NCBI RefSeq assembly: GCF_000027125.1
Contig: NC_017626.1
Source of the DNA: Escherichia coli 042
GTDB taxonomy: Bacteria; Pseudomonadota; Gammaproteobacteria; Enterobacterales; Enterobacteriaceae
Length of the DNA stretch: 64,000 bases
Direction: 5' to 3' (one strand)
Shown here: positions 3,601-24,724 of the stretch, one piece after another
Layout of the letters: each line of letters begins with the position of its first letter
How positions within the stretch are numbered: position 1 is the stretch's first letter
Program-made: the position numbers and the translations under genes
The notes under the pieces: model-generated
The model's input: the letters and a program-made list of their open reading frames with translations, nothing else
What the model was told of the DNA's origin: nothing
Database searches by the model: none

Positions 3601-4083
3601 ACGCTCAACAACGTCACGATTAACGAGAACTGTCGGGTTCTGGGAAAATTGTCCGCGAACCAGATTGAAGGCGATCTCGTTAAAACAGTGGGCAAAGCTT
3701 TCCCCCGGGACTCCCGTGCACCGGAGCGGTGGCCATCAGGAACCATTACCGTCAGGGTTTATGACGATCAGCCGTTTGACCGGCAGATTGTTATTCCGGC
3801 GGTGGCATTCAGCGGCGCTAAACATGAGAAAGAGCATACTGATATTTACTCCTCATGCCGTCTGATAGTGCGGAAAAACGGTGCTGAAATTTATAACCGT
3901 ACCGCGCTGGATAATACGCTGATTTACAGTGGTGTTATTGATATGCCTGCCGGTCACGGTCACATGACACTGGAGTTTTCGGTGTCAGCATGGCTGGTAA
4001 ATAACTGGTATCCCACAGCAAGTATCAGCGATTTGCTGGTTGTGGTGATGAAGAAAGCCACTGCAGGCATCACGATTAGCTGA
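604..4083 (+). CDS. J: Host specificity protein J (central tail fibre / tip attachment protein)
   Basis: 1159 aa ORF; N-terminus [38 protein letters not shown] matches my recollection of lambda J; size and position before lom fit. SD-like gagg upstream of ATG. Confidence 0.95.
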
Positions 4084-4100
4084 ATTTTATAACCCAGATA

Positions 4101-4128
4101 CGGGCGCCAGAAATGGCGCCTTTTTTAT
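4101..4128 (+). terminator. Rho-independent terminator after J
   Basis: ggcgcc-agaaat-ggcgcc hairpin followed by tttttt. Confidence 0.5.
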
Positions 4129-4150
4129 TGCAGAAAAGCGAGAGGTAATT

Positions 4151-4750
4151 ATGCGTAAATTATGTGCTGTTATTTTGTCCGCAGTAGTCTGGCAGGTCGC
4201 CGCTGCTACGCCAGCGAGTGCAGCAGAACATCAGTCCACGCTGAGCGCGGGGTATCTCCATGCCTCGACGAACGTTCCCGGTAGTGATGATCTGAACGGG
4301 ATTAACGTGAAATACCGTTATGAGTTTACGGACGCGCTGGGGCTGATTACGTCCTTCAGTTATGCCAATGCTGAGGATGAGCAAAAAACGCGCTACAGCG
4401 ATACCCGCTGGCATGAAGATTCCGTGCGTAACCGCTGGTTCAGCGTGATGGCGGGGCCGTCTGTACGCGTGAATGAATGGTTCAGCGCGTATGCGATGGT
4501 GGGTGTGGCTTACAGCCGTGTGTCGACTTTCTCCGGGGATTATCTCCGCGTAACTGACAACAAGGGGAAAACGCACGATGTGCTGACCGGAAGTGATGAC
4601 GGTCGCCACAGCAACACGTCTCTGGCGTGGGGGGCTGGCGTGCAGTTTAATCCGACCGAATCCGTGACCATTGACCTTGCTTATGAAGGTTCCGGTAGTG
4701 GCGACTGGCGAACGGATGCATTTATTGTTGGTATCGGATACCGTTTCTGA
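4151..4750 (+). CDS. lom: Lom/Ail/PagC-family outer membrane beta-barrel protein
   Basis: 199 aa, signal peptide ending ASA-AE, C-terminal GYRF beta-barrel signature, position immediately after J as in lambda. Confidence 0.9.
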   Translation: MRKLCAVILSAVVWQVAAATPASAAEHQSTLSAGYLHASTNVPGSDDLNGINVKYRYEFTDALGLITSFSYANAEDEQKTRYSDTRWHEDSVRNRWFSVMAGPSVRVNEWFSAYAMVGVAYSRVSTFSGDYLRVTDNKGKTHDVLTGSDDGRHSNTSLAWGAGVQFNPTESVTIDLAYEGSGSGDWRTDAFIVGIGYRF

Positions 4751-4901: not shown

Positions 4902-7900
4902 ATGACAGTAAAAATTTCTGGCGTGCTTAAAGATGGCACAGGAAAACCAGTACAGAACTGCACCATTGTGCTGAAGGCCAGACGAACCAGCAGCACGGTG
5001 GTGGTGAACACGGTGGCCTCTGAAAATCCGGATGAAGCCGGACGTTACAGCATGGATGTTGAGCATGGTCAGTACAGCGTCACCCTGCTGGTTGAAGGTT
5101 TTCCGCCTTCACATGCCGGGACCATTACCGTCTATGAAGGTTCCAGATCAGGTACGCTGAATGATTTTCTCGGTGCCATGACGGAGGATGATGTCCGACC
5201 GGAGGCACTGCGCCGCTTTGAGCAGATGGTGGAAGAGGTGTCACGTAACGCCTCCGCGGTTGCACAGAATACGGCAGCCGCGAAAAAATCAGCCAGCGAT
5301 GCCAGTGCATCAGCCAGCGAGGCGGCAACTCATGCAACCGATGCTGCAGCCTCAGCACGTGCCGCCAGCACGTCAGCCGGACAGGCCGCGTCGTCGGCTC
5401 AGTCAGCGTCTTCCAGCGCAGGAACGGCATCGACAAAGACCCGTGAAGCAGCAAAAAGTGCTGCTGCTGCAGAGTCATCAAAAAGCGCGGCAGCTACCAG
5501 CGCCAGTGCCGCGAAAACGTCAGAAACGAATGCCGCAGCATCACAAAAATCGGCAGCCACTTCTGCATCCACAGCGACCACGAAGGCGTCAGAAGCTGCC
5601 ACCTCGGCACGGGGTGCGGCGGCCTCAAAAGAGGCAGCGAAATCTTCAGAAACGAATGCATCATCAAGTGCCAGTAGTGCAGCTTCCTCGGCAACGGCGG
5701 CAGGAAATTCCGCGAAGGCGGCAAAAACGTCCGAGACGAACGCTAAGTCTTCTGAAACAGCAGCGGGACAGAGCGCCTCAGCTGCGGCAGGTTCAAAAAC
5801 AGCGGCTGCATTATCTGCCAGTGCCGCGTCAACAAGTGCCGGGCAGGCCTCAGCCAGTGCCACCGCCGCCGGAAAATCGGCAGAAAGCGCCGCATCATCC
5901 GCTTCAACAGCCACAACGAAGGCTGGCAAAGCCACTGAGCAAGCCACTGCAGCAGCGAGGTCTGCTTCTGCAGCAAAAACCTCTGAAACAAATGCAAAGA
6001 CTTCAGCAGACAATGCTGCTTCCTCTAAGGCGGCAGCCGCATCGTCAGCCAGTTCAGCGGCGTCATCGGCATCATCTGCGTCTGCTTCAAAAGATGAGGC
6101 GACCAGACAAGCGTCAGCAGCGAAAGGTAGTGCCACGACAGCAACAACGAAAGCATCAGAGGCGGCAGGCAGTGCGACGGCTGCATCTCAGAGCAAAGTT
6201 GCTGCTGAATCCGCGGCAACGCGCGCCGAGACAGCAGCAAAACGGGCAGAGGATATTGCATCCGCCGTGGCGCTGGAGGATGCGAGCACGACGAAAAAGG
6301 GGATAGTACAGCTCAGCAGTGCAACAAACAGCACCAGTGAAAAGCTGGCGGCAACGCCAAAGGCAGTTAAAACTGTTAAAGATAGTTCAGTTCAAAAAAC
6401 TGGCGACACAATGGGAGGGCAGTTAAAAATCAGCACGATAAATGCTCTTCGAATATTCAACCAAGCCTTTGGCCTTATTTTTAGGCGTTCCGAAGATCAT
6501 CTTCATCTTATTCCGACTAATGAAGGGGAGGGGGAAAATGGAGACATCGGTTCATTAAGACCATTCTCTATAAACTTAAGATCAGGGTTGGTGTCCATCG
6601 GTAATGGACTAAAAGTTGGTGGTAGTGTTACTGGTAATTTGACCGGAAACGCAGATACTGCGACCAAGATCAAGACAGCACGTAAGATTGGGGGCGTGGC
6701 ATTTGATGGATCGGCAGATATCAACTTGCCTGGAGTCAACGCTACCGGTAATCAAAACACTACAGGTAATGCTGCGACCGCCACGAAACTTCAGGCAGCC
6801 AGAACGATTAACGGTGTGTCATTTGATGGTAGTGCAAATATCACATTGACCCCTTCAAATATTGGGGCATTGGCATTAACTGGAGGGACTCTTTCAGGTG
6901 GTTTAACTGCTGCTGGTGAGGTTATTTCAAGGTCAGCAAATGGTCTGCGTATTGCCTATGGCAACTATGGATTCTTTATCCGAAATGATGGATCAAACAC
7001 ATATTTTATGTTGACAGATTCGGGTAACAGTCTTGGTACGCACAATAGCTTAAGGCCGTTTATAATTAGTAACCATACTGGCAATGTTACAATTGCAACT
7101 AAATTAAACGCGAGTGGTGGTATCACTGGATCTTTATCGGGTAATGCAAGCACAGCAACCAAATTGCAAACTGCAAGGACAATTAACGGCGTAAAATTTG
7201 ACGGCTCGGCAAATATTGAAGCGTTTCCGCCAGGTGTTCCGCTGCCGTGGCCATCAGATACACCACCTGCAGGTTATGCAATCATGCAGGGGCAGACGTT
7301 TGATAAGGCAGCATATCCGAAACTGGCTATTGCCTATCCTTCAGGTGTTATTCCAGATATGCGCGGCTGGACAATCAAGGGCAAACCCGCCAGTGGCCGG
7401 GCCGTATTGTCTCAGGAACAGGACGGCATTAAATCGCACACCCACAGCGCCAGCGCATCCAGTACGGATTTGGGGACGAAAAACACATCGTCGTTTGATT
7501 ACGGAACCAAATCCACGAATAACACCGGGGCGCATACCCATAGTATTAGCGGGACTGCAAATAGTGCCGGTGCGCACCAACACAAGAGTTCCGGTGCATT
7601 TGGTGGCACGAACACGAGCATTTTCCCTAATGGTTATACCGCGATTTCAAATCTAAGCGCGGGGATTATGAGCACAACAAGCGGTAGTGGCCTGACTCGT
7701 AATGCAGGGAAGACATCATCAGATGGTGCTCATACCCACTCGCTGTCCGGCACTGCTGCAAGCGCAGGCGCACATGCACATACTGTCGGTATTGGTGCTC
7801 ATACGCACTCCGTTGCGATTGGCTCACATGGACACACCATCACCGTTAACGCTGCTGGTAACGCGGAAAACACCGTCAAAAACATCGCATTTAACTATAT

Positions 7901-7916
7901 TGTGAGGCTTGCATAA
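4902..7916 (+). CDS. stf: Side tail fibre protein
   Basis: 1004 aa; N-terminus [22 protein letters not shown] and C-terminus ..[18 protein letters not shown] resemble lambda Stf from memory; long Ala/Ser/Thr-rich low-complexity shaft; three tandem ~38-aa repeats (TGNxxTATKxxTARxIxGVxFDGSAxI) at about 6600-7210; cluster of His-x-His motifs near the C-terminal tip. Confidence 0.92.
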
Positions 7917-8500
7917 TGGTATTCAGAATGAGTGAACAACCACGGACCATAACAATTTATAATCTGCTGGCCGGAACTAATGAATTTATTGGTGAAGGTG
8001 ATGCATATATTCCGCCTCATACAGGTCTGCCAGCAAACAGTACCGATATTGCACCGCCAGATATTCCGGCAGGCTTCGTGGCTGTTTTCAACAGTGATGA
8101 GGCATCGTGGCATCTCGTTGAAGATCATCGGGGTAAAACGGTTTATGACGTGGCTTCCGGCGACGCGTTATTTATTTCTGAACTCGGTCCGTTACCGGAA
8201 AATGTTACCTGGTTATCGCCGGAAGGGGAGTTTCAGAAGTGGAACGGCACAGCCTGGGTGAAGGATACGGAAGCAGAAAAACTGTTCCGGATCCGGGAGG
8301 CGGAAGAAACAAAAAACAACCTGATGCAGGTAGCCAGTGAGCATATTGCGCCGCTTCAGGATGCTGCAGATCTGGAAATTGCAACGGAGGAAGAAACCTC
8401 ATTGCTGGAAGCCTGGAAAAAGTATCGGGTGTTGCTGAACCGTGTTGATACATCAACTGCACCTGATATTGAGTGGCCTACGAACCCTGTCAGGGAGTAA
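7916..8500 (+). CDS. tfa: Tail fibre assembly protein (chaperone)
   Basis: 194 aa, start overlaps stf stop; sequence [54 protein letters not shown] matches recalled lambda Tfa almost residue for residue. Confidence 0.93.
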
Positions 8501-8550
8501 TCATTGGGATTATGCCGCAGCACGTCTTAAGCAAGAACGTGCTGCGGTTG
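8340..8550 (+). repeat. Direct repeat copy A (tfa 3-prime end plus downstream hairpin)
   Basis: About 210 bp, roughly 90 percent identical by eye to 9390..9600, including the post-stop sequence taatcattgggattatgccgcag. Confidence 0.8.
8513..8548. terminator. Hairpin between convergent tfa and methyltransferase genes (candidate bidirectional terminator)
   Basis: gccgcagcacgt / acgtgctgcgg arms (about 11-12 bp) around an 11-nt loop; T-run follows on the plus strand. Confidence 0.45.
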
Positions 8551-8554
8551 GATG

Positions 8555-9223
8555 CTATTTTTTCCCTGAAGCGGAAAACATTACTACAGTACCTTGAACC
8601 TTGGTTTTAACATTCTCGAAATGCTCTGAGAGTATATGTGTTAAGCCTTCTTCGGAATCTTTTGTGTTTGAAAAGATGCCTTTCTGATTGTAAATGCGCA
8701 TCAGTTTTTGACCGAAGCTATTGTGCACAACTCCATCGCCAAGAATTGTGGCTCCGTATAGAGTTCCATCGTCAGTTAAGGCCTGCGCCGCATTGCGTAT
8801 TACACAGCTTTTTGTAGATATATTTCCAGGCAGGCAGTGAAGAAGGTAAAACATGGAAATGGAATCAAATTGACCATGTAACGCCGCGGGATAAGGTTCA
8901 AAAACATCATGGCTAATTTTATGTTTAATTTTTGATTCCCCAGCCCTTGTAGATGCCGCGTTCAGGCTAGCTTCGTTCAAATCCATTAAAGATATCAGAC
9001 TACTCTCAGGTACGTGAGTAAGGTAAAACCCAGTTCCAACACCAATATCCAGATGGTTGTTACCTAAATGTTCCAGAAAGTGTGGAAGAAGGTGTTCCTT
9101 TGTAGGACATCCCCATGCAAGCCGATTTGATACTCCCAAAACCCACCAGTCATAAAGCTTTAGGGTAAGTGGTGTGTAAATTTTAGCCCCATCATCTGTG
9201 TTTTTTTTCATTAATTTCACCAT
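8555..9223 (-). CDS. Class I SAM-dependent methyltransferase (putative), prophage cargo gene
   Basis: 222 aa ORF. Motif I LDIGVGTG, acidic post-I ISLMDLN, motif II FDSISMFYLLHCLP, motif III LTDDGTLYGATIL in canonical order. Visibly AT-rich versus neighbours. Likely true start is the second Met (MKKNTDDG, about 9211) which has a GGTGA SD-like sequence upstream. Substrate unknown. Confidence 0.65.
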   Translation of the reverse strand: MVKLMKKNTDDGAKIYTPLTLKLYDWWVLGVSNRLAWGCPTKEHLLPHFLEHLGNNHLDIGVGTGFYLTHVPESSLISLMDLNEASLNAASTRAGESKIKHKISHDVFEPYPAALHGQFDSISMFYLLHCLPGNISTKSCVIRNAAQALTDDGTLYGATILGDGVVHNSFGQKLMRIYNQKGIFSNTKDSEEGLTHILSEHFENVKTKVQGTVVMFSASGKK

Positions 9224-9279
9224 GTTATAGTTTTATTTGTGAATTAAATCAATTATGGCGATGAATTACAAGGGGTTAA

Positions 9280-9549
9280 ATGCTGCCGCAGCATAGCGAT
9301 ATTGAAATAGCCTGGTATGCTTCGATACAGCAGGAGCCGAATGGCTGGAAGACCGTCACCACACAGTTCTACATCCAGGAATTCAGTGAGTATATTGCGC
9401 CACTGCAGGATGCTGTAGATCTGGAAATCGCAACGGAGGAAGAAAGATCGTTGCTGGAGGCATGGAATAAATATCGGGTATTGTTGAATCGTGTTGATAC
9501 ATCAACTGCACCTGATATTGAGTGGCCTGCAAATCCTGTCAGGGAGTAA
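9280..9549 (+). CDS. Truncated or divergent tail fibre assembly protein homolog (tfa-prime, 89 aa)
   Basis: C-terminal 52 aa nearly identical to Tfa ([51 protein letters not shown]); N-terminus unrelated and short; good SD aagggg 5 nt before ATG. Could be a functional mini-chaperone or a remnant. Confidence 0.5.
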
Positions 9550-9600
9550 TCATTGGGATTATGCCGCAGACACGTCGTATGCAGGAACGTGCTGCGGTTA
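9390..9600 (+). repeat. Direct repeat copy B (tfa-prime 3-prime end plus downstream hairpin)
   Basis: Partner of 8340..8550; hairpin arms are degenerate in this copy. Confidence 0.8.
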
Positions 9601-10135
9601 GTTTGTGAGCTTTCGATAGTGGTTGTTATTTTTGCCCTTATTTGTTCCGGAGGCCATGGTTCAATGGTCCGTCTGCCCCCTGTGGTGATGTCAGCAAAAT
9701 CAGCCACTGCGCGAACCACAATAGCCCGGGAAGATGCTGAAGATCACCAGGTAAAGCTGTCAGCGCAGAAACTGGAAGAACTGCTCGCATCAATGGTTAA
9801 GGATGAGGTTGATCGCAATGATGGGATTTATTGACGTCAGCGAGAGCAGAAGGAAGAACTGAATAACCTGAATGATTTACGCTCAATCAGAGCGATGATG
9901 ATTGGCAGTAATTAGCGGTCAATTTCGGTTTTTTTGGCTGTGCGCTCCCCGCCCAGCATTGCGCGTCAATTAGCCCCAAAAAAACGAAAAAGTTACAATC
10001 AAGTAAAAAATTCCTTCTGCAAAACTAAAAAAGATTTCAATAAAATCAGACAGTTAAAAGCATAAAAAAAGGTACAAAAAAAACATCTCAAAGTCTTGTT
10101 TTTTGCTTCAAATACAATTGGTTATTGTGTTTTTT

Positions 10136-10263
10136 GAAACCTACCAGTCTGGTACATGGATATCGATACCACCGCCAATTATAAGCTGGGCGGTGCACAG
10201 CAACACGATAGCGTACGCCTCGATCCGTGGGTGTTTATGTTCTCAGCAGGATATCGTTTTTAA
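10136..10263 (+). pseudogene. ompW: 3-prime fragment of ompW (last ~42 codons) at the prophage-chromosome junction
   Basis: In-frame translation ..WYMDIDTTANYKLGGAQQHDSVRLDPWVFMFSAGYRF-stop matches the OmpW C-terminus as recalled; an in-frame TGA lies just upstream (about 10133) and sequence 5-prime of it is phage-like and AT-rich; yciE follows as in K-12. Confidence 0.8.
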
Positions 10264-10270
10264 TTCCGCA

Positions 10271-10298
10271 CAAAAACGACCCCGTAATATACGGGGTC
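10271..10298 (-). terminator. Terminator hairpin between ompW remnant and yciE (serves yciGFE transcript)
   Basis: gaccccgta-atat-acggggtc hairpin with T-run on the minus-strand transcript. Confidence 0.55.
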
Positions 10299-10322
10299 AA
10301 TAAGGACATGGTATAAAGGGTA

Positions 10323-10829
10323 TTATTTCTTCGCTTCTACGCCATCAGTTTCAGAGCGAATTAAAAATTTCTCAGTTGTTTGCGGAATATGCTGAATCAG
10401 CCAGTCGGCCATTTCTTTTTCCTCATTTAAAATCGCTTCGATGGTTGGAATTGAAGCTGTATCACCGGCATTTTTTGCTGCTGCTAATAGTGAGGTGTAA
10501 CAGGCGATTTCAAATTGCTCGAAGACATATCCGCTAATAGAGCCTTTGACTATTTCATCAGAAGGGAATATACCACCGATTGACTGCCCAAGCGCAGCCA
10601 TTTTACTCATGGAATCTTTAATGACTGAACGTGAAATGTCATTACGATCAAGAATAGTTTCCAGTTGAACAATCTGGTTTTTGGTTTCACTAAGATGTTG
10701 TTCAATACGAGCGCGTAGTTCAGGATAATTATCTATACGACTAGCCATGGATTCAAGCATAGATTCGGCTTGCTTTTCCATTGCGTGGGCGTCACGTAAC
10801 CAGTCATGATAATGTTCAATACGATTCAT
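10323..10829 (-). CDS. yciE: YciE, ferritin-like stress protein (DUF892)
   Basis: 168 aa ORF; recognised sequence and K-12 synteny. Confidence 0.93.
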   Translation of the reverse strand: MNRIEHYHDWLRDAHAMEKQAESMLESMASRIDNYPELRARIEQHLSETKNQIVQLETILDRNDISRSVIKDSMSKMAALGQSIGGIFPSDEIVKGSISGYVFEQFEIACYTSLLAAAKNAGDTASIPTIEAILNEEKEMADWLIQHIPQTTEKFLIRSETDGVEAKK

Positions 10830-23969: not shown

Positions 23970-24724
23970 TGGGAAATTCCTGGTTTACGGCCCGGTTGGG
24001 CGTCAAAGGTCATGCCGGTTTTACGGCGGCTGTCATCACCCATCAGCCAGAGGTAGAGCGGCATGATATCAGCGGGTGTTTTAAGTTTCTGTGGATCTTC
24101 GGTCGGGAAGGCGCTGGCACGCATTGCGGTGCGCGTACCGCCTGGGTTAATACAGTTGACGCGCAGGCGCTGCTGATATTCATCGGCCAGTACCTGCATC
24201 ATCCCTTCGGTGGCAAATTTCGACGCTGCATATGCGCCCCAGTTTGCACGCCCCTGACGTCCAACGCTTGATGAAGTAAAGACCAGTGAACCCGCGTCCG
24301 ATTTGAGTAATAAAGGAAGCAGTGCCTGGGTGAGCATAAAGGTGGCATTAACGTTGACCTGCATAACGTCCTGCCAGACCTGCGGATTTTGTTCGCTCAT
24401 TGGGCAAACATCGCCGAGCAATCCGGCATTATGCAAAACACCATCCAGACGCGGATAATTAACGGCAATGCGCTGTGCCAGTTGTTGGCAATCTTCGGAC
24501 GTGCAGGTCAGCAAATCGAGAATAAACCACTGTGGCTGACGCCCTGTTTCTTCGTTGATGTGGCTGGCTACCTGACGTAATTTTTCTTCATTACGGCCCA
24601 ACAGAATCACTGTCGCACCATAGCGTGCATACGTTATCGCGGCTTCACGACCAATACCATCGCTGGCTCCTGTTACCAGGATAATGCGATCATTGAGTAA
24701 ATCTTGTTTTGGCTGGTAATGCAT
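23966..24724 (-). CDS. yciK: YciK, short-chain dehydrogenase/reductase
   Basis: 252 aa; Rossmann motif VTGASDGIG; overlaps cobA start by 4 nt. Confidence 0.93.
   Translation of the reverse strand: MHYQPKQDLLNDRIILVTGASDGIGREAAITYARYGATVILLGRNEEKLRQVASHINEETGRQPQWFILDLLTCTSEDCQQLAQRIAVNYPRLDGVLHNAGLLGDVCPMSEQNPQVWQDVMQVNVNATFMLTQALLPLLLKSDAGSLVFTSSSVGRQGRANWGAYAASKFATEGMMQVLADEYQQRLRVNCINPGGTRTAMRASAFPTEDPQKLKTPADIMPLYLWLMGDDSRRKTGMTFDAQPGRKPGISQ

Follow-up and report, generated by a model that had tools for sequence, protein, structure and literature searches.

A probable remnant of a DUF4376 tail-fibre chaperone-type gene at the right end of an ompW-integrated lambdoid prophage in Escherichia coli 042

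Positions 9646-9915 (plus strand) of the window, our term for the whole 64,000-nucleotide stretch of Escherichia coli 042 DNA that was analysed, very probably hold a dead fragment of a DUF4376 gene, namely the final ~89 of its ~190 codons, left as a recombination scar when a tail module was replaced. The interrupted frame described in the original prediction is present at its coordinates (ATG at 9688-9690, TGA at 9832-9834 and TAG at 9913-9915), and its reading as a pseudogene is borne out by the truncation, the internal stop, the existence of intact counterparts and the flag in RefSeq. An intact gene is found at the same att site in the ETEC4073 prophage, and RefSeq (PGAP) already marks the same stretch as a DUF4376 pseudogene with an internal stop and a missing N-terminus in strains H3, ST131 and 55989. 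The object is thus already known in kind, an ordinary pseudogene, and the fragment is most likely non-functional. The features on which the analysis draws are the following.

9280..9549, plus strand: tfa′, a fragment of a lambda-type tail-fibre assembly gene (Caudo_TAP) that covers the C-terminal part (PF02413 positions 75-130 of 131, E-value 6e-25; PGAP "tail fiber assembly protein, missing N-terminus")
9553..9647, plus strand: 5′ flank of the breakpoint, made up of a 59-nt lambda b-region-like element (9563-9621) and 28 nt resembling the Rac attR arm (9620-9647)
9646..9915, plus strand: probable 3′ remnant (~47%) of a DUF4376 tail-fibre assembly/chaperone-type gene, a pseudogene without its ~102 N-terminal codons (BLASTP, phrog_1141, alignment, PGAP)
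9664..9834, plus strand: 56-codon ORF (MVRLPPVVMSAKS...GIY) behind GGAGG at 9649-9653, read from the sequence; contains the ATG at 9688
9832..9834, plus strand: in-frame nonsense codon TGA inside the remnant, aligned to sense codons in relatives
9913..9915, plus strand: TAG, the original stop inherited from the ancestral DUF4376 gene; SerU-LTIIb stf2 terminates at this point too (...SSN/GSN), where its alignment with the remnant ends
9916..9998, plus strand: non-coding segment travelling with the remnant and common to phage SerU-LTIIb (in blastn, 9662-9998 corresponds to L002 (SerU-LTIIb) 4001-4333 at 75.7%)
9996..10172, plus strand: A-rich attP arm and attR, with the core, approximately TGGTACATGGATATCGATACCAC, at 10150-10172 and the displaced ompW 3′ end at 10138-10263 (alignment of attR with the 55989 attL; PGAP OmpW fragment)

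Homology to intact genes that follow tail-fibre genes

As read from the sequence, the frame has 48 sense codons (MSAKS...DGIY) from the ATG at 9688 up to the TGA and, past it, 26 further in-frame codons (RQREQ...IGSN) before the TAG. Homologues exist in both intact and interrupted configurations, so the frame is neither without relatives nor unconserved among them. Three phages with intact genes, Rac-SA53, SerU-LTIIb and phiP27, were recovered by tblastn with E-values of 1e-23 to 6e-21. In BLASTP searches, the joined frame aligned without gaps to residues 102-186 of Rac-SA53 tail4 (59% identity, E-value 3e-33) and to residues 106-192 of SerU-LTIIb stf2 (64% identity, E-value 1e-31). A PHROG search showed that the fragment covers positions 106-191 of the 194 in phrog_1141 ("tail fiber protein", E-value 3.7e-21) and also matches phrog_7703 (E-value 3.5e-25). 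At the DNA level, the region is 70-76% identical to genes in the phage collection that come right after the side-tail-fibre gene: "stf2" of SerU-LTIIb, "tail4" of Rac-SA53 and the terminal "tail fiber protein" of phiP27. According to an alignment of six sequences, with 43 invariant columns, residues ~103-192 of a 192-residue protein are kept in the window.

The full-length relatives pass the Pfam model for DUF4376 (PF14301) (61.9 and 58 bits; cut-off 25). This domain spans residues 70-174 of the Rac-SA53 protein, and the remnant begins mid-domain at residue ~102. A Pfam scan of the fragment, which covers only the back part of the domain, yielded no PF14301 match at E ≤ 1, and the NCBIfam models yielded no match to it. 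Since the fragment scores below every Pfam and NCBIfam threshold, its family assignment rests on pairwise and PHROG homology. A match of the fragment to DUF5646 (E-value 0.012) was below the cut-off and was disregarded. Searching PDB sequences with the intact ETEC4073 homologue returned nothing.

Compared with known DUF4376 proteins (PF14301; Rac-SA53 tail4, ALP46893.1; SerU-LTIIb stf2, ALP46936.1; the phiP27 terminal "tail fiber protein"; and V22 gp27), the fragment has 59-64% amino acid identity over the last ~87 residues, and it shares its C-terminal end and stop position with SerU-LTIIb stf2. Like these genes, it occupies the place of the last late-region gene before attP/attR. Unlike them, it lacks the first ~102 codons, carries an in-frame TGA and falls below the Pfam threshold. 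Homology begins at residue ~103 of 192, and the DNA upstream of this point is unrelated and non-coding. The small protein of 75 residues that the original prediction had considered is thus not one, but what is left (the 3′ ~47%) of a gene of ~190 codons after deletion of the first ~102. The copy in the window is also separated from the functional fibre gene, which ends at 7916, by tfa, a methyltransferase gene and tfa′, whereas in Rac-SA53, SerU-LTIIb and ETEC4073 the DUF4376 gene directly adjoins, and usually overlaps, the fibre gene. Lambda/Mu-type Tfa (Caudo_TAP, PF02413) is likewise encoded by a small assembly chaperone gene following the fibre gene. It belongs to another Pfam family, however: DUF4376 is matched by neither the intact tfa of the window (7916-8500) nor tfa′, and Caudo_TAP by none of the DUF4376 relatives.

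In Alteromonas phage V22, a DUF4376 protein (gp27) encoded downstream of the fibre gene is needed for fibre maturation (PMC7289586, PMC10579305), and the same holds for fibre/RBP maturation by the DUF4376 protein downstream of the fibre gene in Campylobacter CJIE1 prophages (PMC7882524). Chaperone activity was shown by experiment only in these distant members of the family, V22 gp27 and the CJIE1 downstream gene. By analogy, their role in maturing fibres suggests that the ancestral gene of the remnant was of the tail-fibre chaperone type and not cargo. Such activity is not expected from a half-gene with a stop codon.

The in-frame stop and competing readings

The TGA had been proposed to be a premature stop, and relatives do have a sense codon at this position: CGC (Arg) in Rac-SA53, CAG (Gln) in SerU-LTIIb, CGT (Arg) in the closest intact relative (L013, 82% nucleotide identity) and CAA (Gln) in a Rac-site variant (L014). 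A 41-mer centred on the TGA occurs exactly in 956 E. coli records. As the number of records with a copy of at least 95% identity is the same (561 + 395), the TGA is fixed in the lineage. Three database proteins of 83 residues show a tryptophan (W) at the TGA position. We rejected these as sense-codon alleles, because the contig DNA has TGA and the translation fits only with genetic code 4, so the W versions are gene-caller artefacts. The 83-residue W versions in public protein collections stem from short metagenome E. coli contigs (L010-L012).

The ATG at 9688, from which the frame had been read, is not a start codon but the conserved internal methionine of PVVM(A/S)AKS in the six-sequence alignment. 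A better-looking start is the upstream ATG at 9664, 10 nt after the GGAGG. The frame is open already from 9553, and in the ORF list the TTG-started ORF has 93 codons. Automatic gene finders most often call the 56-codon form, the exact protein of which is found on at least 1000 contigs under names such as "hypothetical protein" or "tail component"; the 48-, 56- and 93-residue versions deposited by gene callers occur on more than 1000 contigs in all. The alignment and a comparison of the junctions indicate that the GGAGG and the ATG at 9664 derive from ancestral internal Gly-Gly and Val/Met/Leu codons. This is relevant for annotation hygiene, as callers keep reporting products of 48, 56, 93 and even 83 residues at the remnant.

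The stretch was found in about 1,000-1,200 of 5,426 complete E. coli genomes. In ~956 complete genomes, the remnant with its TGA lies beside the ompW end of a lambdoid prophage, and fragment and TGA are 98-100% conserved across these. Such conservation could reflect constraint, but is accounted for just as well if a single prophage lineage spread recently. The copies differ at 1-5 sites each, with N73K and four changes at the 3′ end among the non-synonymous ones, and these are too few independent differences to measure selection. The remnant probably persists by hitch-hiking with the widespread ompW-integrating lambdoid prophage.

Several of these observations might be taken as signs of a product. 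We consider it improbable that the frame encodes a genuine small protein of 56 residues (from the ATG at 9664) or 48 residues (from 9688), that is, a domesticated C-terminal piece of the chaperone that could, for example, hinder the fibre assembly of competitors. The GGAGG at a spacing of 10 nt, the ORF calls on at least 1000 contigs and the high conservation, with a fixed TGA, in 956 records would fit such a protein, but the ORF opens partway through the Pfam DUF4376 domain, and its Shine-Dalgarno sequence and ATG are altered internal codons. Moreover, the Rac-site variant has a wholly different C-terminal half and no stop, which argues that length and sequence are unconstrained, and the few polymorphisms include the non-synonymous ones named above. 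A promoter and terminator scan found no promoter-like site on the plus strand upstream (9396-9688) and no terminator-like site after the stop, and PGAP calls the stretch a pseudogene. Even less likely is a reading in which the 56-codon ORF is translated and the orphan chaperone piece acts on other phages, for instance as a dominant-negative decoy against super-infecting or co-resident phages that use DUF4376 proteins; if true, this would explain why the remnant is retained in ~18% of complete E. coli genomes. In a milder form of this reading, no more likely, the fragment would serve the prophage as a homology landing pad for capturing new fibre cassettes, a role at which the crossover at 9784, described below, hints.

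Programmed read-through or recoding of the TGA, giving an 83-residue product (MVRLPP...IGSN), deserves almost no credence. The stop is followed by C, TGAC being a comparatively leaky stop context, and the three database proteins with W at this position appear to fit. These, however, come from the short metagenome contigs that have TGA and are genetic code 4 artefacts, Rfam shows no recoding or SECIS-type element, and the gene is 5′-truncated anyway. Within 9200-10400, Rfam detected nothing in the remnant, the sole match being IS009 on the neighbouring tfa′. The original prediction had offered a pseudogenised cargo gene, and a position at the prophage end beside a methyltransferase moron is indeed typical of morons. 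Yet a cargo gene unrelated to virion structure is highly unlikely and already refuted by homology, as the homologues all directly follow the tail-fibre gene, carry DUF4376 and fall in PHROG "tail" families, and no promoter-like or terminator-like site of its own was found for the remnant. Its homology instead traces it to a DUF4376 tail-fibre assembly/chaperone-type gene of the structural module. Finally, chance alone can yield an ORF of this length, which is common in the window, with many spurious ORFs of 40-150 codons in the same 6 kb. We judge the frame at 9646-9915 to be real because it has homologues, not because of its length: E-values of 1e-31 to 3e-33 to phage proteins and collinear DNA homology of 73-82% to intact genes already refute a chance ORF in non-coding att-proximal DNA, which has practically no probability left.

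The ompW-site prophage and the 5′ breakpoint

The remnant of the DUF4376 gene belongs to a lambda-like siphovirus prophage integrated at the 3′ end of ompW. In E. coli 55989, it lies inside one complete lambdoid prophage, bounded on one side by int/xis at the regenerated ompW and on the other by the displaced 3′ end of ompW, which adjoins yciE. With the att core at ~10150-10172, the remnant is ~235 nt inside the right end of the prophage. At attL, the prophage supplies a diverged ompW 3′ end that is 80% identical to the displaced original at attR, so ompW stays intact.

The intact counterpart at this site is found in ETEC4073 (L009; E. coli NZ_CP122660.1, 2566000-2615900), a phiP27-like, Stx2e-encoding prophage with a contractile tail. 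Its integrase is 98% identical, its early region is similar, and the attP arm at 9996-10172 is 92% identical to the ETEC4073 arm. The right end of the ETEC4073 prophage consists of the tail fibre gene, an intact gene for a 192-residue DUF4376 protein, rha, ash and attR, from which we conclude that the intact gene is normally the last late gene before this att arm. As the one prophage is a siphovirus and the other a myovirus, a single integration and early backbone can carry either tail module. In the lambdoid version, a lambda-type tail/fibre module takes the place of everything upstream of codon ~103.

Other parts of this end vary as well. The rha-ash module occupies the point of the 9916-9998 segment in ST131 and ETEC4073; the window is without rha-ash and has the 83-nt SerU-LTIIb-like segment there instead. 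In ST131 (L004, NZ_CP103710.1), rha-ash separates the remnant from the ompW fragment, the methyltransferase gene is cut short by an IS66-family element (ISEc23), and yciE/F/G are missing beside trpA. Descent of the remnant in place from a phiP27-like ompW prophage was softened as an explanation, because its identity to the ETEC4073 gene is ~75% and because the same breakpoint is found at the Rac site, flanked by the Rac att-arm.

The sequence on the 5′ side of the breakpoint resembles the right arm of Rac-SA53, with which 9563-9647 is collinear (L003 4255-4312 and 4541-4571). Its first part (9563-9621) is 89.8% identical to lambda 24161-24219 in the b region, and the same 59-nt element is also present after the first tfa (8500-8549) and after the Rac-SA53 DUF4376 gene. 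More generally, the element recurs downstream of tfa and DUF4376 genes in several phages. It contains an inverted repeat (CCGCAG...CTGCGG) and a terminator-like site (9580-9596), and could serve either to terminate the late operon or as a recombination hotspot. The second part (9620-9647) matches the Rac-SA53 sequence leading into attR and ends in TTGTTC, the 6 nt with which the 26-nt Rac core TTGTTCAGGTTGTATTGTTCTTTCTT begins. Homology to DUF4376 genes starts at the very next base, where the window has CGG AGG and its relatives have CGG TGG. A breakpoint within the Rac att core might be a sign of an event tied to att, as opposed to illegitimate crossing-over at a random site, although the match is 28-31 nt long and could be due to chance.

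An identical breakpoint, followed by an identical first 138 nt (9646-9783), was found in a few prophages at the Rac site, ttcA/uspF (L014-L017, strain rl0044). There, the remnant comes immediately after an intact tfa; its 3′ half is Rac-SA53-like, and the stop is absent. A second, fuller copy of the flank (59 nt, 228 nt, 31 nt and core) after the remnant is the true attR. Complete genomes contain the two forms in a ratio of roughly 950 (ompW/TGA) to 5 (Rac site). The two variants switch sharply at 9784, from no differences to 20 in 72 nt, which marks a homologous crossover. Because the same breakpoint is found at two att sites, we conclude that the truncation happened once and that the scar then moved between prophages by recombination. 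Only two points of this analysis are mildly new, namely that the breakpoint is common to both att sites and that it falls within the Rac att core. The breakpoint can serve as a marker linking ompW-site and Rac-site prophages.

Probable stacked scars of tail-fibre replacement

The DUF4376 remnant is not the only truncated fibre-module gene at this end. The fragment tfa′ is also a 3′ fragment left beside a newer fibre cassette, and tfa′ and remnant are collinear with the intact tfa and remnant of the Rac-site form (L014/L017). This suggests that the tfa was truncated by the later cassette, which consists of stf (4902-7916), tfa (7916-8500) and the methyltransferase gene (8555-9223, minus strand). 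With two successive truncations, the right end of the prophage would represent two stacked scars of fibre-module replacement.

From these observations, we infer an order of events. An ancestral recombination would have swapped the upstream tail/tail-fibre module for a lambda-type stf-tfa and cut the DUF4376 gene at codon ~103, leaving the orphan 3′ half beside the att arm. The TGA would have arisen from a codon for Arg or Gln (relatives have CGN or CAR), either later or already before the cut. In a second, later replacement, the arrival of a new stf-tfa with the methyltransferase moron would have reduced the earlier lambda-type tfa to tfa′ (9280-9549). The first cut possibly occurred when Rac-type prophages collapsed and one endpoint fell in the Rac att core. 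Two such prophages would once have been arranged in tandem or nested, and the second would have been mostly deleted, from the central att core to a point in its DUF4376 gene. We propose this collapse because the layout of the flank is as expected from it.

Lambdoid prophages are mosaics, and the exchange of modules by recombination leaves remnants of genes at module boundaries. The DUF4376 fragment resembles such remnants in lying at a module junction, in having a breakpoint common to different att sites and in containing a crossover (9784). It differs from them in having a junction of which one side reaches 6 nt into the Rac att core. As a textbook scar of module exchange in a lambdoid prophage, the remnant matters little alone. 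Together, the stacked scars record successive replacements of the tail fibre, and the position of the breakpoint hints that the att-associated collapse of tandem prophages can generate scars of this type.

The methyltransferase moron (class I, SAM-dependent; 8555-9223, minus strand) is bracketed by direct repeats at 8324-8549 and 9373-9599. These repeats of 227 nt are 88.5% identical and correspond to the tfa 3′ end plus ~50 nt. This bracketing suggests that the methyltransferase gene came with a fibre cassette that recombined within tfa. The Rfam match to IS009 (RF02111) covers 9303-9506 on the plus strand and scores 112.5 bits, just below the gathering score of 117 (E-value 7.9e-27). As it lies wholly on tfa′, this "sRNA" family seems to describe the 3′ ends of genes for tail-fibre assembly.
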